64,000 nucleotides of DNA from an uncultured Phycisphaerales bacterium (GTDB taxonomy: Bacteria; Planctomycetota; Phycisphaerae; Tepidisphaerales; Tepidisphaeraceae), in assembly GCA_963758525.1 (NCBI GenBank), contig CAVWVQ010000003.1, forward strand, positions 4,352,001 through 4,416,000, read 5' to 3'. The notes under the pieces are model-generated. The model did not search any database, was not told where the DNA came from, and worked only from the letters and a program-made list of their open reading frames with translations. Positions 18,991 to 61,454 of this stretch are shown one piece after another. The position numbers and the translations under genes are program-made. Within the stretch, counting starts at the first letter, position 1, and every line of letters starts with the position of its first letter.

Positions 18991-19169
18991 AAACGGCGAG
19001 CATGCTCGCCGGCTACACGAAGAGATGCGCAGATGCGAAAAAACCCGGAATCCGGTCCCGTCGTTCCTCTTTTCCCCGTGTAGCCGGTGGGCATGCCCAC
19101 CGGTTTCCCCCTTCCGACCTGTCGTCTCCGCCCCTGAAAATTCACGGCGAGCATGCCTGTCGGCTACAC
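18991..19169. repeat. Three GTAG-type REP palindromes upstream of RAYT
   Basis: GTGTAGCCGGTGGGCATGCCCACCGG-like units at 18991-19018 (-), 19078-19104 (+) and 19144-19169 (-, degenerate). Confidence 0.9.
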
Positions 19170-19179
19170 TGAAGAGAGA

Positions 19180-19776
19180 ATGGTCCGCTGGTATCACGCG
19201 ATCTTCAGCGCTTACGGATTCTGGCTTCCGAACGATCCGCGGGGGTCGTGGTCGGACTTTGTGGGGTCGTGGGAGCTGTTGAAATTTGGGTGCGCAACCA
19301 CGACGGGCGAGAAGCGGTCGCTCGCGGCGGTAGCGCATGACGCGGATGTGCGCCGGAGGGCGAAATTAGCGCTGAAATATCCGCCGGTGCGGTTCAACGA
19401 CGCCCAGCGTCTCGCGATCGGAGCAGGCATCACCCAGGCCTGCGCCGAATCGAAGATCATTCTTCACGCCTGTGCGATTGGCTTCGATCACGTTCACATC
19501 GTCGCCGCCCGACATACGAAACGCGTGGAGCAGATCGTCGGACAATTGAAGGGCCGATCCACGCAGCACATGGGGGCGGCTGGATGTCATCCGATGCAGG
19601 CGGCGCTCCCGTCGACACGACCGCTGCCTACACCGTGGTCCGAGGGGTGCTGGTCCGTCTTTATCAATGACCACGAGCAACTCAGATGTGCGATCAAATA
19701 CGTCGAGCGCCATCCGCAAAAGGAAGGCCTCCCAGCGCAACGATGGACCTTCGTCCGTTCCGTCTCCTACGTGTAG
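19180..19776 (+). CDS. REP-associated tyrosine transposase (RAYT, HUH/Y1 IS200-like superfamily)
   Basis: YHAIFSAYGFWLPNDPRGS N-terminus, HUH motif DHVHIV, W..G.W segment and catalytic Tyr in IKYVERHP; flanked by REPs on both sides. Confidence 0.88.
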   Translation: MVRWYHAIFSAYGFWLPNDPRGSWSDFVGSWELLKFGCATTTGEKRSLAAVAHDADVRRRAKLALKYPPVRFNDAQRLAIGAGITQACAESKIILHACAIGFDHVHIVAARHTKRVEQIVGQLKGRSTQHMGAAGCHPMQAALPSTRPLPTPWSEGCWSVFINDHEQLRCAIKYVERHPQKEGLPAQRWTFVRSVSYV

Positions 19777-19911
19777 CCGGTGGGCATGCCCACCGTTTTC
19801 TTTGGGTGTGGAAGACGTCGGACGGGGGGAAACGGCGAGCATGCTCGCCGGCTACACAAAAATACTTGCTGATTTCCCACTCTTCGTTTAGCCGGCGGGC
19901 ATGCCCGCCGT
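19771..19911. repeat. Three REP palindromes downstream of RAYT
   Basis: Units at 19771-19797 (+), 19830-19857 (-) and 19888-19911 (+, TTAG foot). The RAYT stop codon is the TAG of the first unit's GTAG. Confidence 0.9.
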
Positions 19912-19945
19912 GGTCCTTCGCGTTGAAAATCTTTTCACCGCCGTA

Positions 19946-19991
19946 TTGACAAGATTTCCATTCCGAACGTATACCTAACATTGTACGAACA
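19946..19991 (+). promoter_or_regulatory. Putative imuA promoter with overlapping LexA-like direct repeats
   Basis: TTGACA (19946-51), 18 nt spacer, TATACC (19970-75); GAAC-N7-TAAC-N7-GAAC at 19965-19990. Confidence 0.6.
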
Positions 19992-19994
19992 GAG

Positions 19995-20975
19995 ATGAGC
20001 CATGCGATTTGTTTCCTGTCACGACGGCAAGCTTCAGGTGTTAAGTCCGCAGGAGTTCCGCGCCCGACCGCCCAGGCTTTCACCACCGGCTTGGCACCGC
20101 TGGACGCACTGGCGCCAGGAGGGGCGTTTGCCCGGGGAGCGGTGCATGAAATTCTCACCGCCCCCGAGCATGGCGCCGCCCTTTTTTTTGCGACGCTCCT
20201 GGCCGGAGCGTCGGCAGCGCCGCCGGGAGGCACGGGGGATGGGGAAGGCACGAAGGCAGTCGCCGCGGCGACTAAACTGCGGCACCAAGGCACAGGGGGA
20301 AGGATGGAGGAGGGATTCAGAGAGGGTTCAGGGTTCAGGGTTCAGACTTCAGCACAAAAATCCCCTTCCTCCCCTTCGTGCCGCAGTTTAGTCGCCGCGG
20401 CGACTGCCTCTGTGCCTTCGTGCCTTCCCCCTGATCCCCCTTCGTGCCTTGGTGCCTCCGTGCCTTCGTGCCGGCGATTCATCTGCTGGTGCGATCCCAC
20501 GCGGGAAATTTATCCGCCGGCGTTGGCGAGTCATGGCATCGCATTGACGCATTTATTTCTTCTGCATCCGAACGGCCCGCGCGATCTGCTCTGGGCGATT
20601 TCTGAATCTTTGCGATGCAAGGGGGTCGCCGCCGTCGTGGCCGCTCCGCCACGTCTCTCGCGCGTCATGGCGCGCCGTCTTCAGCTTTCCGCCGAGCGCG
20701 GCGGCGGCGTCGGATTGCTGCTGCGCAGCACCAACGCGCCGGGAATTGATTGCTATGCCGCCGCCACCCGCTGGCTGGTGCGCCCCCAGGCTGGGGAGCG
20801 CACCGTGCAACGATGGAACGTTCAACTGATTCACGGTCATGGAGGATGTATCGGACAGACCGTCATCCTGGAGGTAAGCCGTGAAAACCATTCTGTGCGT
20901 GCACTTGAATCGCTGGCCAATCGACCGATGGAGAAGAGCACAGGACAAACTTCGGGCGTTGCCAAGGCCTCGTGA
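19995..20975 (+). CDS. imuA: ImuA (RecA/SulA-like) with in-frame repeat insertion
   Basis: TGLAPLDAL.PGG.F.RGAVHEI, WCDP..EIYPPAL, ESLRC, RRLQLSAERGG and AATRWLV motifs; upstream of imuB and dnaE2. Confidence 0.9.
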   Translation: MSHAICFLSRRQASGVKSAGVPRPTAQAFTTGLAPLDALAPGGAFARGAVHEILTAPEHGAALFFATLLAGASAAPPGGTGDGEGTKAVAAATKLRHQGTGGRMEEGFREGSGFRVQTSAQKSPSSPSCRSLVAAATASVPSCLPPDPPSCLGASVPSCRRFICWCDPTREIYPPALASHGIALTHLFLLHPNGPRDLLWAISESLRCKGVAAVVAAPPRLSRVMARRLQLSAERGGGVGLLLRSTNAPGIDCYAAATRWLVRPQAGERTVQRWNVQLIHGHGGCIGQTVILEVSRENHSVRALESLANRPMEKSTGQTSGVAKAS

Positions 20976-22873
20976 TTGCCAAGCCGTTCCTCCTCAAAAA
21001 CAAATTCAAAACTTCCGGAACGCCACCCCCTCTCCCGGTACTCCGGGAGAGGGCAGGGGTGAGGGTGATTTCGAGCACCAACGGCACTTGACGTTCCAAA
21101 TCACCCTCACCCCAACCCTCTCCCGGAGTACCAGGAGAGGGGACAATCAAGCAGCCTCTCTCCTCAATACACATTCTTCCCAAGTTCCCCTGGTCATCGT
21201 TCGCACCGTCGCCGATCGGCAGGTGATTGTTTCTCTGTGCGACCTGGCCGCCCAGCGGGGAATTCGCCGGGGGATGACGCTCACGCAGGCCCGGGCGCTG
21301 TGCGCCGATGTCGAGCATGCCGAACACGACCCGCCGGCTGACCGTCGGGCGCTGGAGGCGCTGGGTCGCTGGCTCACGCGTTTTACGCCGACTGTGGCGC
21401 TGGACGCCAGTGAATCCGCCGACGGCATTTTCCTCGACATCACCGGCTGCGACCGGCTGTTTGGAAGCGTTGAAAATATTGTCCATCAGGTGATCGACGC
21501 CTTGGCTCGCCTGCGCATCAGCGCCCGCGTCGCAGTTGCTCCCACGCCTGGGGCGGCCTGGGCCTTGGCTGTCGCGGGGGAAAACGGCGATATCGCGTCC
21601 ATCGACACGCTGGCGGATATGCTTGCGCCGCTTCCTCCTGCCGCATTGCGCATCAGCGACGATCTTGCCGCGGCATTGCATCACCTGGGGCTGGTCCGCA
21701 TCCATCAGGTGATCGACCTTCCCCGCGGCCTGCTCCCGGTACGTTTCGGTCCCGAATTGCTTTTGCGCATTGATCAGGCACTGGGCCGAATCTCCGAGCC
21801 GCTGGTTCCGCTCCAATATCTTCCCCCCATCATTGCGCGTATGGATTTTGACGGCCGAGTCTCTTCGCTCGAAGCCATCTGGGCAGTCTTTCAGCAATTG
21901 ATCGGGCAGATCATCGCGCAGCTGACGCATCGCGGCTGCGGCGCTCGCCGGCTCGATATCGAGTTGCTCCATCTCCACGAGCCACCGGTCCGCAAAAGCA
22001 TTTTTCTCTCCCGTCCCTCGCGCGATGCGGTGAATTTGTTTAATTTATTTCGGTGTGGGATGGAGGAGGGGAGGGAAGGGACAAAGGGACAGAGGGACAA
22101 AGGGACAAAGGGAAGACAAGAAGGCACGAAGGCAGTCGTGGCGACTGCCTCCGTGCCTTCGTGCCTCTCTTCCCCTCCCCCTTTGTCCCTTTCCCCTTCC
22201 CTCTCCGACGACGGTTACAGCGGCATGATCCTCCATGTCCCCTTATTTGAGCCAATTTCCGATCAGCAACTCGGCCTTCTCGGCCAGGAAGAATATGACG
22301 GGCAACTCGAGCTCGATCGTCTCATCGAACGGCTGCGGATTCGCCTGGGAGAACAGACCGTCATGAGCACCCAATTAACCGAATCCTACATCCCCGAGCG
22401 CGCCTGGAGCGCCTGCGCGAGAAAGCAGGGCAGTAAAGCAGTTGAAAGGAAAGAAGAATTCCCACTCTAAAGCATCCCCTTCCTCCCCTTCGTGCCGCAG
22501 TTTAGTCGCCGCGGCGACTGCCTTCGTGCCTTGGTGCCTTCCCCCTGATTCCCCTTCGTCCCTTGGTCCCTTTGTCCCTTTGTCCCTTCCTCCTCCCATC
22601 CGTCCCCTTCACTTATTCCTTCATCCCATCGAAATCCGCGTGATGGTCAGCCCGTCGGATGATGCCGAAGGGCAGCCCGCCGCGTTTACGCATGAGGGGC
22701 AGGTCCGCACGATCGTTCACGCCGTCGGCCCCGAGCGTATTGCCGGGCGGTGGTGGGACGGCCACGACAAAACCCGCGATTACTTCGACGTGGAGGACGC
22801 CAGTGCCAGAAGGTTCTGGCTCTTCCGCGTGCGGGAAACCGGGCGGTGGTATTTGCATGGAGGGTTTGAGTGA
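20881..22873 (+). CDS. imuB: ImuB (Y-family polymerase-like) with three repeat insertions; apparent frameshift near 22410
   Basis: WPIDR, GMTLTQARAL, RFTPTV, LDITGCDRLFG and APTPGAAWALA; C-terminal GPERIAGRWW, RDYFDVED and WYLHGGFE lie in ORF 22442..22873. Confidence 0.9.
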
Positions 22874-22874
22874 A

Positions 22875-23155
22875 GAAGCCCGGGGAGAAGTCAGGAGCAA
22901 GAAGCCAGAAGTAAGAAGCAGGAATTGCAAATTGAGGATTGCAAATTGCAAAATTGAAGGGCGGCAATTTGAGATTTGAGATATTTGAGATTTGAAATAT
23001 TTGAGTCCTGGTGACCCAAAGGAGTAAGAACCATAAGGAGACAAAAAAGCCCCGTCCCCCAAAATTTGCATTTTGCAATCCTCAATTTGCATTTTGCAAT
23101 TCCCTCTTCTGACTCCTGGCTTCTGGCTCCTGGCTTCTGACTCCCTACTTCTCCA
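22875..23155. repeat. Compound inverted-repeat hairpin between imuB and dnaE2
   Basis: AGAAGCC-like and TTGCAAA-like heptamers on the left are mirrored by TTTGCAA/GGCTTCT units on the right; GAGATTT units lie in the loop. Confidence 0.9.
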
Positions 23156-23159
23156 AAAA

Positions 23160-26100
23160 ATGCCCGAAGCTCCCAACCCCAAACTTCGCGAAGCTCCGCC
23201 GCCAGCATTGAAATCGGTGGCTCCCTCCTCCTGCGCCTATGCGGAGCTGGACGTCAAAACCAACTTCTCTTTTCTCCGCGGCGCTTCGCATGCCGACGAA
23301 CTGGTCTATCGTGCCGCGGAGCTGGGATATCGCGCGATCGGCATCACCGACATCAACTCTCTCGCCGGTGTCGTTCGTGCCCATGACGCGGCCAAGGAAG
23401 TCGGCCTGAAGCTTCTCGTCGGCTCCCGCCTCACGTTTTCCGACGCTCCCGACCTGCTCGTCTGGGCCAGCAATCGCGCGGGATACGCCAGGCTTTGCAG
23501 AATGCTAACCCTGGGAAAACGCCGGACCGAAAAAGGAGAATGCGATTTAAGGCTGGAGGATTTTTTGAATGATAATGAGGGGTTGGTGGCGGCCGTGGAG
23601 GGGGATCAAAGAGAGGCACGAAGGGAAGGAAGGAAGCAGGAGTCAGGAGCCAGAAGCCAGAAGTCAGAAGAGGAAACCGAAGATTGCAAATTGAGGATTG
23701 CAAATTGCAAATTGCAAATTGAAGAACACCTCCTCTCCCCTTCCTCCCCCTTCGTGCCGCAGCAAGGTCCCGCGCGCGCGGGATGCCTTCGTGCCTCCGT
23801 GCCTGCATTAATTTCCCTCCGCTCCTCCCTCGGCTCGCGTCTCTCGCTGATTGCCGCCTGCTCTTATGGCTCGGACGATTCCTCACATCTGCGCCGGTTG
23901 GCGGAGCTGTCGCGCCAATGCCATATTCCTCTTCTGGCGACCAATGCGGTTCACTATCACGACCCGTCCCGCCGGCGGCTGCAGGACGTGCTCACGTGCG
24001 TTCGCCATGGCTGCACCATCGACGAAGCGGGCTTTCGTCTGTTTCCAAACGGCGAACGCTATCTCAAATCGCCGCTGCAGATGCATCGGCTCTTTGCCGA
24101 CTATCCGCAGGCGCTGCGGCGGGGGATCGAGATTGCCGAGCAATGCGACTTTCAACTCGATTCGCTACGCTATGAATATCCCGACGAACTGGTTCCGGCC
24201 GGGAAATCTCCCATCGAACATCTGGGCAATCTCGCCTGGGCCGGGGCGGCTGAGCACTATCCAGCCGGCATTCCTCAAAAAGTGCGCGATCTGCTCAACC
24301 ACGAGCTGACGCTGATCGCACAACTCAAATTCGAAGCCTATTTTCTCACCGTCCATGATCTGGTGTGCTACGCGCGATCGCGCGGCATCCTCTGTCAGGG
24401 GCGCGGATCGGCCGCCAATTCCGCGGTCTGTTTCTGCATCGGGGTCACGTCGGTCAACCCTGTCGAAGTCGATTTGCTTTTCGAGCGGTTTATCAGTGCC
24501 GCCCGCAATGAGCCGCCGGACATTGACATCGATTTCGAACACGAGCGCCGCGAGGAGGTGATTCAATACATCTACGAAAAGTATGGCCGCGAGCGCGCCG
24601 GGATGACCGCCGAGGTAATCACCTATCGCGGTCGCTCCGCGGTCCGCGACGTGGGCAAAGCGATGGGCCTCACGCTTGACATGGTCGACACGATGGCCTC
24701 GAAGCTCGACTGGTGGCATCGCGGCGTGCTGAGCGAGCCGCAACTGCAGGAGTGCGGCCTGGACCCCGCGGATCGGACGATTCGTCGAGTCATTGCGCTT
24801 GCCACCGAGTTGCTGGGTTTTCCCCGCCACTTGAGCCAGCACGTCGGAGGGATGGTGATGACGCGCGGACCGTTGTGCGAACTGGTGCCGATTGAAAATG
24901 CGAGCATGCCGGATCGAACTGTCATTGAGTGGGATAAGAATGACATTGACTCGCTGGGGATTTTGAAAGTTGATGTGCTGGCGTTGGGAATGCTGACGTG
25001 TATTTCGAAGGCGCTTAAGTTGATCAGTTGGACAAATGTCAGAGACGAAGGGACAAAGGGACAAAGGGACGAAGGGGCGGAGGGGGGAAGGGACGAAGGG
25101 ACAGAGGGACGAAGGGACAAAGGGGCGGAGGGGGGAAGGGACGAAGGGACAGAGGGACGAAGAGACAAAGGGGAATGTGGGGAGGGGGATAAAGAGGCGA
25201 TATCTGATGCACAAAGTCAATACGTTTCGGGATCTGGTTGCTTGGCAACGAGGGATGGAACTGGCGCAAACGACGTATTCAGTGATCCTGAGGATGCCAC
25301 AAGCGGAGAGGTTTCGTCTTTTCAACCAGATGTGGCGGGCCGCGTACTCGATCCCGTCCAACATCGCGGAGGGATACGCCCGACAATCCCGCCCGGATTA
25401 TTTGAAGTTTCTGCGGATTGCTCGCGGTTCACTGGCAGAGCTGTCTACTCAAGTCGAATTAGCAATCAATCTTCGAATTATTACTCCGTGTGCACAACTG
25501 CAGAACCTGGAGAATCTGCTGATGGAGGAGGATCGAATTCTACAGGCGCTGATTATGAGCCTCCAACGCAAAACGCGACAGGAAGAGCAAATGAGGGGAG
25601 GGGCAAAGGGACAAAGGGACTAAGGGACGGAGGGACAGAGGGTAAGGCAAATCCCTCCGCCCCTTTGTCCCTGTGTCCCTCTGTCCCTTCGTCCCTCCCT
25701 TCCTCTGCCCCTTCGTCCCTTCTCCCTCCCTTGTCCCTCTCCTCCTTCCGTCCCACCGATCCCGCTGTCTACCAAATGATGTCGAATGCCGACACGGTCG
25801 GCGTTTTCCAGATTGAGAGCCGGGCGCAGATGTCCATGCTGCCGCGGCTGCGACCCAACTGCTTTTACGATCTCGTGATCGAAGTCGCGATCGTGCGCCC
25901 AGGCCCAATTCAGGGAAACATGGTTCACCCCTATTTGCGACGCCGTTGCGGCGAAGAAAAAGTCACATTCCCCAATGAAAAACTGCGCGAAGTGTTGAGC
26001 AAAACCCTCGGGGTTCCGCTTTTTCAGGAACAGGCGATGCGCATTGCAATGGTCGCGGCGGGTTTTACCGCCGACGAGGCGGACAAGTTGCCGCGCCATG

Positions 26101-27468
26101 GCAGCATGGCGTCGGACCAGCGCGCTGGAGGCATTTCATCAGAAAATCGTCCAAGGCATGCTTGCCAATGGGTACGAACAGGAATTCGCCGAACAGTGTT
26201 TCGATCAGATCAAGGGGTTCGGCGAATATGGATTTCCCGAGAGTCACGCCGCGTCGTTTGCGCTGCTGGTGTATGTCTCAGCCTGGATCAAACGTTACCA
26301 TCCCGCGGCCTTCGCGGCGGCGCTGATCAACAGCCAGCCGATGGGTTTTTATATGCCTGCACAAATCGTGCGCGATGCCAAAGAGCATGGGGTGGAAGTG
26401 CTTCCCGTGGATGTGAACCGGAGCCAATGGGATTGCACATTGGAGGGGGGAAGGGACGAAGGGACAGAGGGACATAGGGACGAAGGGACGAAGGGACAAA
26501 GGGACAAAGAGGTAGAGGGACAAAGGGACGAAGGGACAGAGGGACATAGGGACAAATGTGCAGAGGGAACAGATGGAGGGATGAAAGGACAAAGTGCGAA
26601 GATGACATGGGGGGCCGGGGGACCAGTATTGCGATTGGGGTTCCGTCTCATCAAGGGATTTCGCGAAACGCATGCACAACAGATTGCCGAAGCCCGTGCA
26701 AAATGGAAATGTTTTATTTCCATCGCGCAATTGCATCGGACGACGCGGCTGCCTGTCGCATCGTTGCGCATTCTTGCTGAAGCCGATGCGTTTGGATCAT
26801 TGGGAATCACCCGCCGTGAGGCGTTGTGGGAGGTGCTGGAGTTGAAGGATGAGGAGGCAGGGTTGTTTGAAGGGGGGGAGGGAGAAGGGACAAAGGGACA
26901 GAGGGACAAAGGGACAAAGTGCAAAGACGCCATTCCCGCTGCCCCTTTGTCCCTTCGTCCCTTCGTCCCTTCGTCCCTTCTCCCTCCCCTGCCCGCTGCC
27001 CCTTTGTCCCTTTGTCCCTCAGTCCCTTCGTCCCTTCTCCCTCCCATGCCCCTCGGCCAGGAAGTCATGACCGATTACGCGACGGCCGGCCTTTCGCTCA
27101 AGCAACATCCTGTTGCGCTGTTGCGCGATGAACTGCAGCGCAGAAAGATCATTCGTTCCATAGACCTGGATCCGTTACGCAATGGGCGATGGGTTAGCGT
27201 CGCGGGATTGGTGCTGATCCGGCAGCGGCCTGGGACGGCATCAGGCATCGTCTTCGAAACCCTTGAAGACGAAACCGGCATCGTGAATCTGATTGTGAAG
27301 CCGGATATTTACGAGCGCTACCGCCGCGCCGCCCGGCATGCGGGACTGCTCCAGGCCGAGGGATATCTGCAGAAACAGGGACAGGTCGTTCACGTGGTCG
27401 CCAAACGGCTCTTCGACTTGAGCGATTTGCTGCAAGGCCACGAATTTCAGTCGCGGGATTTTCATTAG
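23160..27468 (+). CDS. dnaE2: Error-prone DNA polymerase DnaE2 (ImuC) with four insertions; apparent 2-nt frameshift near 26091
   Basis: TNFSFLRGASH PHP domain, QGRGSAANS, PPDIDIDFEHERREE, PRHLSQHVGG, KVDVLALGML, GVFQIESRAQ, YGFPESHAASFA, RQRPGTA and C-terminal SRDFH. Confidence 0.95.
25207..25623 (+). CDS. Four-helix-bundle protein (23S rRNA IVS protein/TIGR02436-like), nested in dnaE2 in the +1 frame
   Basis: FRDLVAWQRGMEL, ERFRLFNQMWRAAYSIPSNIAEGYARQS and YLKFLRIARGSLAELSTQ match the family signature; SD-like AAAGAGG at 25191-25197. Confidence 0.92.
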   Translation: MHKVNTFRDLVAWQRGMELAQTTYSVILRMPQAERFRLFNQMWRAAYSIPSNIAEGYARQSRPDYLKFLRIARGSLAELSTQVELAINLRIITPCAQLQNLENLLMEEDRILQALIMSLQRKTRQEEQMRGGAKGQRD

Positions 27469-27469
27469 A

Positions 27470-27680
27470 AGGAGAGAAACGTGAAGACGTGAAGACGTGA
27501 AACGTGAAACGTGAAACGTGAAACGTGAAACGTGAAGACGTGACAATGCGAATCCGCCCTCTCACGTTTCACGTCTTCACGTTTCAGGTCCCGTTCCACG
27601 TTCCAATCACCGGCACTGACCGCCCTCTCACGTCTTCACGTCTTCACCCCTCCCGTCACGTTCCACGTTCCAATCACCAG
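27470..27680. repeat. (ACGTGAA/ACGTGAAG)n inverted-repeat hairpin after dnaE2
   Basis: About nine ACGTGA units at 27479-27543 are followed by TTCACGT units; the right arm is duplicated. Confidence 0.9.
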
Positions 27681-57169: not shown

Positions 57170-58008
57170 GATCAAGACGTGCTTTCAGCCTTGCCGAGTT
57201 GCTTGTGGTGCTGGGAATTCTCGGAATTCTCATCGCAATCCTGTTGCCGTACCTGGAGAAAGTGCGCGAATCGGAGCGGCGCGTGCAGTGCGCCAGCAAT
57301 CTGAAAACGATCATGCAGGCGCTGAGCGCCTACGCAAATTCCAATGCTCATTTTTACCCGCGCACGACTTTCGATAAATCGCACAGCGGATACACGTGCT
57401 ACACCGGAGCCGAGTCGCTCGATCCTTTTGCCAAAGACTCGAAGGTGCAGCCGAACGATGTGACCGCGTCGCTGTGGCTCCTGGTGCGCGAGGGGTATAC
57501 GCAGCCCAAGCTGTTCGTCTGTCCGGGCTCCGGCGATGATGTGGATCGCATGCGCAGCGGCGGTGAGGTGGTCAGCGCCGACAAGCGATCCAACTTCACG
57601 TCAGGCCAGTATCTCAGCTACTCGTATTCGTCGCCGTTCAGCACCGCGCCGGGCTACGAGATGAACGACACCCAGCAGGCGGATTTTGCGATCATGGCCG
57701 ACATGAATCCCGGCGTGATCGGGCCGGCGTACGATGCTTCGCCGTTTGAATTGGCGAAGAGCAACTCCAACAACCATCAGAAAGCCGGACAGAACGTGCT
57801 CTACGCGGACGGACACGTGCAATTTCAGATGACCCCGTATTGCGGCGCGGGGGAGGCCGATCGCCGCGATAACATTTACACGGCGCGGGCGCCGATCCCG
57901 CTCGCTGCCAGCCAGTTGCCGCCGCCGGAGAGCACCGGCTTTCCCGGGCGCGACATCTCCCCGGCCGGCACCAACGACAGCTATCTGGTTCCGACGGACG
58001 ATGATTGA
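57166..58008 (+). CDS. Prepilin-type N-methylation protein (DUF1559/H-X9-DG class)
   Basis: AFSLAELLVVLGILGILIAILLP, QCASNL and NHQKAGQNVLYADGHV motifs. Confidence 0.9.
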   Translation: MRSRRAFSLAELLVVLGILGILIAILLPYLEKVRESERRVQCASNLKTIMQALSAYANSNAHFYPRTTFDKSHSGYTCYTGAESLDPFAKDSKVQPNDVTASLWLLVREGYTQPKLFVCPGSGDDVDRMRSGGEVVSADKRSNFTSGQYLSYSYSSPFSTAPGYEMNDTQQADFAIMADMNPGVIGPAYDASPFELAKSNSNNHQKAGQNVLYADGHVQFQMTPYCGAGEADRRDNIYTARAPIPLAASQLPPPESTGFPGRDISPAGTNDSYLVPTDDD

Positions 58009-58040
58009 ATTCAGCTCGTGACGGCATAGGATCACCCCAT

Positions 58041-61000
58041 ATGAGTTCAACCCTTCCCGACGCCATCGGGCGGCTGCTCGCTGCGCGCCCGCTCCAGGAT
58101 CTCGCCAAATCGCTGGCCGAAACGACCGCGCTGTCGGCCAGCGGTTTGTGGGGCAGCAGCGTCGCGGCAGTTGTCGCGGCAGTCGAAAAGACGCTCCAGC
58201 GTCCGGTGCTGGTGGTATGCGGGCATCTCGACGAAGCCGACGACCTCTCCGACGACATCGAGTTATTCTCGGGAAAACGCCCTGAGGTGCTCCCCGCACT
58301 GGAGATGGGCGGCAGCCTGGGGCATATGAGCGAGGAGCTGGTCTCCAACCGGCTCGGATTGCTGTCGCGAATGAGCGTCGACGGCGGAATGCCTCGGTTT
58401 CTCATCGCATCGATCCAGGCGCTGATGCAGCCGGTCCCATCTCGCAGGCAACTGGACGAACTGCTCTTCACCGTGAAGTCCGGCCAGAAGCTCGAACCCG
58501 AGAAGCTGATCGTCTGGCTCTCCGATCACGGATACAACCGCCTCGAGCAGGTTGAAGTCCCCGGAGATTTCGCCGTCCGCGGCGGCATTATCGACGTTTA
58601 CATCCCGGGCGAATTTGAAGTCTCCGGCGAAGAGGTCGGACTCGCGGCCCGCATCGATTTCTTTGACGATCAGATCGAGTCGATCAAGCGCTTTGATCTC
58701 GACACGATGGGATCACTCCAGACGCTGGAATCGGTGCGCCTTGTCGATCTCAAAGGCGCTCTGCCCGACAGTGGCGAATCGACGAGCCTCTTCCGCTATC
58801 TCCCCGCCGACACGATTGTCGCGCTCTGGGCCCCGCTGGAAATTGCCGAGCAGGGGAAGAGCTATCTCGACCGGCTCAACGACGTAAAAGGGATGTATCC
58901 GCTGAGCGCCCTGCTTCAGCAGGCGCAAGGCTTCGCCCGCCTGGAGCTGAGCCAATTCGATCAGGGAACCTCCGCCGGCCCGAGCCTGGTCGGCGGCAAG
59001 GCCGTTCCGCACGTGAAGCTTCCGGTGCGATCGCTGCAGCGGTTCGAGACGGAAGCAAAGAAAGCCATCGGCGAGCTTGCGGAGCTGGCGGAGACGTCAA
59101 AAGTCACGATCTTTTGCGAGAACGCCGGGGAGATGCAGCGATTCAGCGAGCTGGTGGAGACGGAACGGCCGGGGCTAGCCCAGCGAATCGACGTGCGGCT
59201 CGGCTATTTGCATCGCGGGTTTATTTGGGAAGAAGGGGAGGAAGAAAGGCACGAAGGCACGGAGGCAGTCGCCGCCGTGCCTTCGTGCCTTTCTTCTGTC
59301 GCTCTCCTCGGCCATCACGAACTTTTCCACCGCTATGAGCAGCGACGGCATGTCAGGAAGGTGATCGCCTCGCGGCCGGTCGATTCATTTCTCGATCTCA
59401 AATCGGGCGATTACGTGGTGCATGTGGCCCACGGCATCGCCCGGTTCACCGGAATGCAGACGATCTCGAAGGACGGGCACAGCGAAGAATATCTCACCCT
59501 GCGATTTGCCGAGAACGCGACGCTGCACGTGCCGGCCGCGCGAATCAACCTGATTCAAAAATACGTCGGCAGCTTCCAGGGCCATCCGACGCTTTCGCGC
59601 CTCGGCAGCGGATCATGGGAAAAGCAGAAGGCTAAAGTCGCCGAAGCGGTCATGGACATGGCCGCCGAGCTGCTCGAAATCCAGGCGGCCCGAGCGGCGG
59701 AGCCGGGGATGGCGTATCCGCCGGACACGGACTGGCAGCGCGAATTCGAAGCGGAGTTTCCCTATGAGCCGACGGGCGACCAGGTGATCGCCGCGGAAGA
59801 AATCAAACAGGACATGCAGAAGGCCCGGCCGATGGACCGGCTTCTCTGCGGCGATGTCGGCTACGGCAAAACCGAAATGGCGATGCGCGCGGCGTTCAAA
59901 ACGATCGAGTTTGGCAAGCAGGTTGCCGTGCTCGTCCCCACCACGATTCTGGCCGAGCAGCATTACCGCTCGTTTCGCGAGCGGATGGTCAACTATCCGT
60001 TCGCCGTCGAATCCATCAGCCGGTACAAATCCGCCGCCGAGCAGAAGGAGACCGTCAAACGACTGGCCAAGGGCGAAATTGACATTCTCATCGGCACGCA
60101 CCGCCTGATCAGCAAGGATGTGAAATTCGCCGATCTCGGGCTGGTCGTCATCGACGAGGAACAGCGCTTCGGCGTGACCCACAAGGAGCGATTGAAGCAG
60201 ATGCGCAAGACCGTCGACGTGCTGACGATGTCGGCAACGCCGATTCCCCGCACGCTCCATATGAGCATGCTCGGCCTGCGCGACATCAGCTCCCTCACGA
60301 CCGCGCCGCAAGACCGGCGAAGCATCGTCACCGAGGTGATCGCATACGACAAGCAGCGCATTCAGCAGGCGGTGTTGCGCGAGCTCAACCGGGAGGGGCA
60401 GGTCTATTTTGTTCACAACCGCGTGAACAATATTCTCGAGCAGGCCGATGAGATTCAGCGGATGGTCCCTGACGCGCGGATCATCGTCGGCCACGGTCAG
60501 ATGGCCCAGGGAGAGCTGGAAGAGGTGATGCTGAAATTCGTGCGCCACGAAGCGGACATCCTCGTCTGCACGACCATCATCGAAAGCGGCCTGGACATTC
60601 CCAACGTGAACACAATCCTCATCAACGCGGCAGACCGCTTCGGGCTCAGCGAACTGCATCAGCTCCGCGGACGCGTGGGACGCTACAAGCACCGGGCGTA
60701 TTGCTATTTGTTGCTGCCATCCGATCGGCCGATCACAGACATCGCGGCAAAGCGCCTCAAGGCAATCGAGGAATACAGCCATCTGGGCGCCGGCTTCAAG
60801 ATCGCCATGCGCGATCTGGAAATCCGCGGCGCCGGCAACATCCTCGGGCCCGAGCAGTCGGGCCATATCGCGACGGTGGGTTATGAAATGTATTGCCAGC
60901 TTCTGGAAGAGGCGACTCGCCAGCTCAAGAACGAGCCGAAGAAATCGACGCCCGAGGCGCACGTCGATATCGGCGTCACCGCGTTTCTGCCCAAGACCTA

Positions 61001-61454
61001 CATCCCCGGCGATCGACCCAGAATGGACCTATATCGCCGGCTGACGCGATGCACCGACATGCACATGCTGGCGATGCTGGAGCAGGACATGAAAGACGCC
61101 TTCGGCGATCCGCCACGCCAGGCGCTGGTGTTTCTCGCGCTGACGGAACTGCGCCTGTTGGCCCAGATTTATGGCATCAGCAGCATCATCCGCAAAGAGC
61201 CCGACGTGGTCCTGACCGTGCAGGACGCGAAGAAGGCGCAAGCAGCCCTGACAGGCGCTCCCGGCACCCTCCGCGTGATCGATGACAAAACCGTCTATCT
61301 AAGAATGCCGGCAACTTTTCTTGAGTCTGAAACGTTGTTGATGGTGCTGCGCAATCTGCTGCGCGGGGCGTACGATCGGGACGCGAATGTGACCCCATCC
61401 CCGCAAACCGCAGCACCGCCGAAAGCGATGGCGGCCGTAAAAGTTTCCAACTGA
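58041..61454 (+). CDS. mfd: Transcription-repair coupling factor with small in-frame hairpin insertion
   Basis: VRGGIIDV, VVHVAHGIARF, GDVGYGKTE, DEEQRFG, SATPIPRTL, QLRGRVGR and DLEIRGAGN motifs. Confidence 0.98.
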   Translation: MSSTLPDAIGRLLAARPLQDLAKSLAETTALSASGLWGSSVAAVVAAVEKTLQRPVLVVCGHLDEADDLSDDIELFSGKRPEVLPALEMGGSLGHMSEELVSNRLGLLSRMSVDGGMPRFLIASIQALMQPVPSRRQLDELLFTVKSGQKLEPEKLIVWLSDHGYNRLEQVEVPGDFAVRGGIIDVYIPGEFEVSGEEVGLAARIDFFDDQIESIKRFDLDTMGSLQTLESVRLVDLKGALPDSGESTSLFRYLPADTIVALWAPLEIAEQGKSYLDRLNDVKGMYPLSALLQQAQGFARLELSQFDQGTSAGPSLVGGKAVPHVKLPVRSLQRFETEAKKAIGELAELAETSKVTIFCENAGEMQRFSELVETERPGLAQRIDVRLGYLHRGFIWEEGEEERHEGTEAVAAVPSCLSSVALLGHHELFHRYEQRRHVRKVIASRPVDSFLDLKSGDYVVHVAHGIARFTGMQTISKDGHSEEYLTLRFAENATLHVPAARINLIQKYVGSFQGHPTLSRLGSGSWEKQKAKVAEAVMDMAAELLEIQAARAAEPGMAYPPDTDWQREFEAEFPYEPTGDQVIAAEEIKQDMQKARPMDRLLCGDVGYGKTEMAMRAAFKTIEFGKQVAVLVPTTILAEQHYRSFRERMVNYPFAVESISRYKSAAEQKETVKRLAKGEIDILIGTHRLISKDVKFADLGLVVIDEEQRFGVTHKERLKQMRKTVDVLTMSATPIPRTLHMSMLGLRDISSLTTAPQDRRSIVTEVIAYDKQRIQQAVLRELNREGQVYFVHNRVNNILEQADEIQRMVPDARIIVGHGQMAQGELEEVMLKFVRHEADILVCTTIIESGLDIPNVNTILINAADRFGLSELHQLRGRVGRYKHRAYCYLLLPSDRPITDIAAKRLKAIEEYSHLGAGFKIAMRDLEIRGAGNILGPEQSGHIATVGYEMYCQLLEEATRQLKNEPKKSTPEAHVDIGVTAFLPKTYIPGDRPRMDLYRRLTRCTDMHMLAMLEQDMKDAFGDPPRQALVFLALTELRLLAQIYGISSIIRKEPDVVLTVQDAKKAQAALTGAPGTLRVIDDKTVYLRMPATFLESETLLMVLRNLLRGAYDRDANVTPSPQTAAPPKAMAAVKVSN

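Follow-up and report, generated by a model that had tools for sequence, protein, structure and literature searches.

The imuA-imuB-dnaE2 operon of an uncultured Phycisphaerales bacterium (assembly GCA_963758525.1) encodes ImuA, ImuB and the error-prone polymerase DnaE2, and all three genes contain long repetitive inserts. These inserts are probably hairpin-armed cassettes and gene-less remnants of such cassettes, likely selfish passengers that would be translated as unstructured loops of functional ImuA, ImuB and DnaE2 proteins. The operon lies in a stretch of 64,000 nucleotides (nt) of contig CAVWVQ010000003.1 (positions 4,352,001 to 4,416,000), which was analyzed at full length and is called the window here; bare coordinates refer to it.

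Eight inserts in the three genes had been described as low-complexity sequence in a first-pass annotation of the window. All eight are present at the positions and with the translations reported there, and alignment with relatives shows that conserved ImuA, ImuB or DnaE2 sequence resumes past every one of them. The insert at 25040-25755 is more than low-complexity sequence, since it encloses a complete gene for a four-helix-bundle (4HB) protein; neither this nested gene nor the probable derivation of the arms from cassettes had been noticed. The inserts, the nested gene, which is of the intervening-sequence (IVS) type, and a hairpin between imuB and dnaE2 are listed here, with lengths of proteins in amino acids (aa) and model confidence as pLDDT.

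20221..20476, + strand: in-frame hairpin insert of imuA, with GGCACGAA-type arms and an inner GGGTTCA array; fold z -11.3
20940..21180, + strand: in-frame insert in the N-terminal loop of imuB, with a core hairpin at ~21025-21145; fold z -10.2
22058..22205, + strand: in-frame hairpin insert of imuB, with GGGACAAA / GGCACGAA arms; fold z -8.6
22420..22600, + strand: single pyrimidine arm in the C-terminal linker of imuB, repeat family D8; fold z +0.4
22874..23159, no strand assigned: heptamer-array hairpin between imuB and dnaE2, inverted repeats I10 and I18; fold z -11.1
23600..23810, + strand: dnaE2 insert S1 in a loop of the PHP domain, mixed 7- and 8-mer arrays; pLDDT 40-58
25040..25755, + strand: dnaE2 insert S2 of 716 nt, consisting of a purine arm, the 4HB gene, a short purine array and a pyrimidine arm
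25207..25623, + strand: nested 4HB gene (PF05635 / TIGR02436, IVS-type) within S2, 138 aa
26445..26610, + strand: dnaE2 insert S3 at the start of the HhH domain, a single purine arm
26870..27045, + strand: dnaE2 insert S4 in the HhH-OB linker, a gene-less GGGACAAA hairpin; fold z -9.0

Strong hairpin folds are predicted for five of the eight inserts (z -8.6 to -11.3, versus 0 to -2.0 for three controls); those at 22420-22600 and 26445-26610 are single arms, and the one at 23600-23810 folds weakly. By our own sum, the inserts add ~550 residues to ImuA, ImuB and DnaE2 together. Arrays with a period of 7 or 8 number 393-395 in the genome, and 139 were counted in 2 Mb of real sequence versus none after codon shuffling. 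The imuA-imuB-dnaE2 cassette holds 14 of 395 such arrays, versus 0.46 expected, and the operon is the densest 7.5-kb segment of the genome (nine elements, runner-up four); the window had been picked for its density. A further hairpin, an ACGTGAA heptamer array, directly follows the dnaE2 stop codon (27468-27680).

The 4HB gene nested in dnaE2

S2 is located after the catalytic KVDVL helix of DnaE2, in the loop equivalent to residues 574-582 of E. coli Pol III alpha. Its nested open reading frame (ORF) matches PF05635 with 102.3 bits (cut-off 33.8), TIGR02436 with 105.5 bits (cut-off 24) and PDB entry 2GSC with an E value of 3.7e-21. The polymerase is read in the -1 frame of the 4HB gene, and this frame is open across the entire insert. 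The predicted duplex of the two arms reaches -189 kcal/mol, versus -110 kcal/mol after shuffling, and its terminal stem closes the ORF; across 13 of 13 cassettes, pairing of the arms exceeds that of shuffled sequences despite differing repeat units. A GGAG, GAGG or AGGA word precedes the start of the 4HB gene in 12 of 17 cases, a weak signal in view of the purine arms. No intein family was matched in a domain scan of the DnaE2 ORFs, and the nested ORF gave only 23S_rRNA_IVP and bAvd-like matches, none to a homing endonuclease.

Several other 4HB genes in the genome show the same arm-gene-arm layout with other repeat units. The layout is also found around two DUF559 genes and is clear at one of four PDDEXK_3 genes, a family also named GxxExxY. 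The hairpin of the imuB insert at 20940..21180 is 90-98% identical over 41-48 nt to DUF559-flanking arms at G000:C3:1210856-1211138, and its core appears to be the empty form of these arms. On these grounds, most of the remaining inserts look like gene-less arms of 4HB- or DUF559-type cassettes. The single arm at 22420..22600 in imuB shares 113 nt with the imuA insert at 90% identity.

In the family search, the dnaE2 probe matched 102 of 141 genomes, and 110 dnaE2 loci were compared, 102 of which have both S2 anchors. A 4HB gene is nested at S2 in 17 of the 110 loci, at one site and in one relative frame, and in 16 of these 17 carriers the polymerase is read, upstream of the 4HB gene, in the -1 frame of that gene; three carriers have no right anchor. 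An S2 insert of at least 100 nt, of many hairpin types, is present in 39 of the 102 loci, and 37 of these 39 are in frame and free of stops. The length of S2 is not a multiple of three in only five of the 102. A phylum-wide sample, in which 36 of 201 genomes matched and 29 loci were returned, yielded one further 4HB carrier, of the same class; none of the 26 dnaE2 loci of other classes in this sample has a nested 4HB gene. Among 31 alternative-frame ORFs in the long inserts of relatives, none matches Pfam as other cargo.

The comparison among related genomes proposed in the first-pass annotation showed that relatives carry different hairpins at shared loops. The remaining dnaE2 loops and the imuB loops have been expanded independently in many relatives. 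The loop that holds the insert at 22058..22205 is expanded in 11 of 40 ImuB rows, a comparison from which the C-terminal ImuB insert of the window itself was left out, and the loop of the imuA insert measures 119 aa versus 34-68 aa in 11 relatives. An apparent 268-aa S4 insert in G127 proved to be a pattern artefact.

The profile of the -1 peptide matches 608 database proteins. Of 150 listed, 63 long ones were scanned: eight are DnaE proteins, all with the cassette positioned at S2, one is an HhH fragment, 18 are of methylase type (DUF1156 being a methylase-associated family), three are histidine kinases, five belong to other families and 28 to none. A word-indexed search with one host-frame peptide returned only the query itself, and an alignment search with one such peptide gave five matches out of a crowded candidate list. 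Within this material, P0006 is a CarB protein with heptamer arms and the 4HB -1 peptide inside the gene. In P0019, a DnaE2 fragment, the -1 peptide stands just before the HhH motif, which suggests a second nesting site in dnaE2.

The two frames of the nested gene differ in what is conserved. Across the 4HB match, the -1 frame lacks stops in all 17 nested genes, versus four of 19 other 4HB genes that align over 95 residues (Fisher p 7e-7, with kin that are not independent). Two of these four sit within other long ORFs (L199:3-2192 and L223:333-2771); by eye, these hosts resemble a Type III methylase and a GNAT protein, without an NCBIfam match at 1e-15. Codons ending in T are never found before AA, AG or GA in the nested genes (0 of 391), versus 276 of 1445 elsewhere and 49 of 421 in the other 4HB genes. 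After synonymous recoding, the host frame would stay open with a mean probability of 0.034. The third positions of the nested genes differ at 58% of sites, and they are therefore not near-copies. For the 4HB frame, the ratio of nonsynonymous to synonymous differences (pN/pS) amounts to 0.37, versus 1.59 for the polymerase frame. Purifying selection keeps the 4HB protein, whilst the polymerase-frame peptide merely has to stay readable.

With respect to history, the nested 4HBs cluster together to the exclusion of 19 others (93/82), and their carriers are scattered on a DnaE2 tree of 106 rows (15 changes, shuffled mean 16.1), at least 11 of the changes being forced by starred branches. One starred host clade is incompatible with the 4HB DNA (p 0.003). 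In five of 17 cassettes, an 11-mer or longer of the 5' arm is repeated after the gene, which provides direct repeats able to delete the 4HB gene. Exchange between dnaE2 alleles is the favoured reading, but repeated loss would fit too.

Operon, frame breaks and inserts elsewhere

The genes of the operon and other features of the window are listed here.

20002..20975, + strand: imuA; NF033429 match with E 1.3e-20, below cut-off, N-terminus in agreement with relatives
20881..22873, + strand: imuB, with IMS domain; its two halves each align to single ORFs of relatives
23160..27468, + strand: dnaE2, error-prone polymerase; NF004225 matches with E 3.7e-284 and 1.2e-128, one per frame
19972..19990, + strand: operator-like motif TACCTAAC-N7-GAAC upstream of imuA, conserved in relatives
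19153-19776: Y1/RAYT-like transposase directly upstream of imuA, PF01797 just above cut-off
~59230-59300: short in-frame hairpin insert in mfd (58005-61454), of the same 8-mer family as the operon inserts

The three genes lie in the order imuA-imuB-dnaE2 on one strand, as in imuABC mutasomes. Comparison of N-termini with relatives places the true start of imuA at ATG 20002. The catalytic PDIDIDF and KVDVL motifs of DnaE2 are present, its catalytic aspartates are intact and its core is conserved. The nonsynonymous divergence (dN) of the DnaE2 core is similar to that of DnaE1 in 11 genome pairs, and 16 of the 18 relatives first examined have a single intact DnaE2 ORF, many with inserts. In the closest relative, G002 (L031), the ~5.5 kb preceding dnaE2 contain no match to imuA or imuB.

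Three frame breaks interrupt the 7.4-kb operon, each at or beside GCGC, versus ~1.3 expected by our arithmetic. Two of them had been noted before as GCGC-type errors, and both were seen again and look like assembly errors; the third, in imuA, had been missed. This one is at a GCGC near 20062, and a near-identical contig of 151 nt (run X1, depth 3.3) has one extra base behind 20062, which restores the imuA frame. The break in imuB lies between ~22410 and 22467; its exact spot is indeterminate and adjoins an insert, so that the expectation of insert lengths divisible by three cannot be read for the insert next to it. The break in dnaE2 is at a GCGC near 26091, where relatives read through uninterrupted. 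The breaks near 22410 and 26091 lie outside the coverage of independent contigs. When proteins of three relatives were compared with the genome, 39 frameshift junctions were found in 209 conserved loci (72,252 aa), i.e., 0.18 per kb. GCGC lies within 12 nt at 26 of the 27 junctions that can be placed tightly (27 of all 39), versus 22% of random coding positions. The three breaks in the operon are likely assembly errors. Methylation-linked error in long reads is a likely cause of such breaks. Split genes of this assembly are, genome-wide, best treated as probable errors.

The TACCTAAC-N7-GAAC motif is found in 17 of 34 upstream regions of imuA in relatives, and with a matrix made from relatives alone the site in the window ranks first in the genome. 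The motif suggests that the operon is regulated, possibly by induction upon DNA damage. The genome contains lexA, and the region upstream of lexA has no match to the motif. Other strong matches include G000:C3:4317233; the gene behind it presumably resembles a radical-SAM DNA-repair protein. The motif may be an undescribed damage-response operator of the Phycisphaerae. Mobility of the inserts coupled to the SOS response, as suggested previously, finds no support at the five other best loci for this motif, which hold 0-1 elements within 3 kb. Tuning of mutator expression through mRNA structure, a further earlier suggestion, gained no support from the analysis either. The adjacent transposase is bracketed by GTAG-type palindromes near 19000-19160 and 19770-19915 and has several paralogues in the genome. 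It was rejected as mobiliser of the inserts, as the GTAG repeats are unlike the inserts and the transposase is absent from the cassette loci of relatives examined.

Across the genome, most elements (241 of 276) are located chiefly outside genes as predicted by a crude caller. The coding score of the flanks served to judge in-frame status, as the called genes lack the first half of dnaE2. On this basis, there are 22 strong in-frame elements, seven in the operon and 15 elsewhere, which contradicts the notion that the inserts are peculiar to the operon. Other in-frame hosts, from a scan of 20 of 31 candidates, include valS, pheS, murJ, lolCE, purL, rimO, nadA, pglX, radA, rarA and a photolyase gene, and insert-type peptides are in frame in ValS, PheS and MurJ. 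Housekeeping genes of the window had been reported to be free of inserts, except mfd; mfd indeed has one, but many housekeeping genes across the genome have them too. Per kb, the operon is enriched in such repeats but does not have them exclusively. Its characterization as an insertion hotspot that is still under selection for full-length proteins holds, given the density of elements, the stop-free frames and a core dN like that of dnaE1. This same similarity in dN speaks against relaxed selection on the protein core, another earlier suggestion; a looser tolerance of loops in a conditional gene is plausible. At least seven identical ACCTAACGAGCGCCGAAC sites are found genome-wide, and ACCTAACGAGCGCCGAAC is probably the end of a multi-copy element.

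Known systems, rival explanations and meaning

Full-text literature yielded no account of 4HB cassettes or repeat hairpins inside dnaE2, subscription papers and supplements being mostly outside the scope of this search. The closest parallels each share some aspects with the system. The ShiLan domain and the Pacc40 insertion are out-of-frame HNH genes inside phage DNA methylases (PMC11855218). The dnaE2 cassette resembles them in having a whole ORF in another frame of a stop-free host, in a predicted loop and with a patchy distribution. However, it encodes a four-helix bundle, for which no nuclease activity is known, between long complementary arms made of tandem repeats; gene-less derivatives of these arms are common, and its host is a cellular C-family polymerase. 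The IVS of Coxiella 23S rRNA bears an S23p ORF (PMC4990558), and there too a PF05635 protein is found amid a long stem and is considered selfish. In contrast, the present 4HB gene lies not in an rRNA gene but in dnaE2 and hence in an mRNA, where cutting by RNase III without rejoining would destroy the message; moreover, its ORF is under purifying selection rather than decaying, and selection keeps the host frame open.

Rickettsia palindromic elements (RPEs) are in-frame palindromes in unrelated housekeeping genes, thought to be compatible with protein folding (PMC10969869). The multi-copy palindromes of the present genome, some of them in frame in unrelated housekeeping genes, resemble in this respect coding palindromes or miniature inverted-repeat transposable elements of the RPE type. 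RPEs are units of ~150 bp with a conserved peptide. The present inserts, in contrast, consist of tandem arrays built from short units; they belong to several families, encode a peptide that is not conserved, have arms in common with gene-carrying cassettes and accumulate in one operon. The operon itself agrees with known imuABC mutasomes (PMC6511836, PMC3919608) in gene order, domains and catalytic aspartate motifs, but the ~550 extra residues and the nested gene set it apart; passages of PMC3919608 contain no mention of inserts of this kind. Avd of diversity-generating retroelements (DGRs) belongs to a homologous fold family and is likewise partnered with an error-prone polymerase (PMC10053308). 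However, the 4HB protein scores far below the cut-offs of the Avd models (NF033474, 24.6 versus 80 bits; PF22296, 21.8 versus 40 bits), and the cassette ORFs scanned contain no reverse transcriptase. By analogy, the feature would work like a ShiLan element and a coding palindrome, with IVS-type cargo.

On the interpretation of the inserts as passenger cassettes, they would be read through into protein as floppy loops, and the 4HB protein would be translated separately from its own start. Recombination between repeats could remove the central gene and leave empty hairpins, and recombination in the conserved flanks could swap the dnaE2 cassette between alleles. Cassettes would survive in genes where the frame stays open and the loop is tolerant. 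The higher load of dnaE2 than of dnaE1 may reflect a low cost of long loops and RNA stems in an operon that is dispensable and only conditionally expressed. In relatives, dnaE2 has 0.27 elements per kb (24 of 58 loci), imuB 0.18, imuA 0.045 and dnaE1 0.027 (two of 20 loci), versus 0.006 for further conserved genes from three genomes poor in repeats, and DnaE1 varies by merely 15-29 aa at the loop matching S2. As a separate observation, the dnaE1 locus L186 of G024 has a 461-aa insert with Cys as first residue, which is intein-like by eye.

Several points weigh against this interpretation. The dnaE2 and dnaE1 sets just compared come from unpaired genomes, and some dnaE2 loci had been chosen for long frames. 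We infer translation through the inserts because the host frame is selected to stay open, and thus from selection alone. An alignment-based model of DnaE2 has a confident core and leaves S2 without predicted structure (pLDDT ~26-33), as is expected of any poorly aligned segment; a single-sequence fold of a relative's DnaE2 (pLDDT 35) was not used. The genome encodes RNase III, which could cut mRNA stems of such length. Among the carriers, G102 is shifted out of frame ahead of the 4HB gene, G153 has lost polymerase sequence behind it, and the 4HB gene of G121 contains a stop. The clade of nested 4HBs is not starred, four of the five host clades are not rejected by the 4HB DNA (p 0.09-0.37), and a Mantel test (rho 0.16, p 0.14) favours neither co-descent nor its absence. 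4HB proteins are not known to be nucleases or transposases, so that the spread would lack an identified engine.

Among the rival explanations, read-through without horizontal spread, i.e., a single ancestral entry into dnaE2 in this class with many later losses or reductions to arms, is unlikely. It accounts for the single group of nested 4HBs, for three carriers that group in both the DnaE2 tree and the 4HB protein tree, for the deletion route offered by the direct repeats in five of 17 cassettes, and for the empty 26 loci of other classes. Yet it requires very many losses, with a short loop in 59 of 106 rows, and disagrees with the rejection of one starred host clade; in addition, many gene-less S2 inserts belong to unrelated hairpin families, so fresh insertions do occur at this site. 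Quite unlikely, too, is domestication, in which an Avd-like 4HB protein would serve the mutasome as accessory factor or the RNA stems would tune expression through RNase III cleavage or ribosome pausing. The purifying selection on the 4HB protein, the presence of RNase III, the enrichment of the operon over dnaE1 and the resemblance of PF05635 to Avd, which is essential for error-prone retrohoming (PMC10053308), are compatible with such a role, as is the fact that repair functions (radA, rarA and photolyase) account for three of the 15 strong in-frame hosts elsewhere, in addition to mfd. However, the cassette is missing from most dnaE2 alleles, methylases, kinases and CarB show the same nested layout, no constraint is seen on arm type or insert length, and the other motif-bearing loci are not enriched in elements. 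Furthermore, extension of the stem into the host flanks is alike in filled and empty alleles (p 0.70), and the flanks pair no better than a codon null.

Removal or skipping of the insert at the RNA level is very improbable, be it by splicing, by ribosome bypass or by an IVS-like excision followed by rejoining; the open frame would then be a leftover. The long paired arms do close the cassette as in rRNA intervening sequences (PMC4990558), and pairing is kept while repeat units change; but strict avoidance of stops in the host frame and lengths divisible by three would then be needless, two inserts are single arms, and RNase III excision of an IVS fragments the RNA (PMC4990558). Moreover, no Rfam family reached its gathering score and no intron model matched, only generic hairpins being found below threshold. 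That the operon is a decaying pseudogene, or that the inserts are assembly artefacts, is hardly credible: three breaks in 7.4 kb, two of them outside independent contig coverage, might suggest it, but breaks are found throughout the genome at 0.18 per kb and nearly always at GCGC, the imuA frame is restored in the independent contig, the core has the same dN as dnaE1, and DnaE2 is intact in most relatives first examined, inserts included. The passenger interpretation can be extended to a bolder proposal, which is doubtful as a whole. In it, a dnaE2-specific lineage of IVS-type 4HB genes would home between alleles without a nuclease of its own, as part of an undescribed hairpin-armed class with 4HB, DUF559 or GxxExxY genes, the empty arms of which would write new protein loops. 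The mutasome operon would offer it shelter, and mutator output may be modulated by the Avd-like protein or by the RNA stems.

The dnaE2 cassette provides a natural example, well replicated, of a gene that lies within a cellular DNA polymerase gene in a second frame. Its signature is clean, as one frame is selected for protein sequence and the other for the absence of stops alone. It maps four loops of DnaE2 and several of ImuB as accepting large inserts, and it is a warning that annotation hides such nested genes. It also links three puzzles that are mostly studied separately, namely the IVS proteins, whose function is unknown, the hairpins of short tandem repeats and the coding palindromes that lie in frame, and the natural filled and empty alleles of one site make the function of PF05635 proteins and the movement of the cassette testable.

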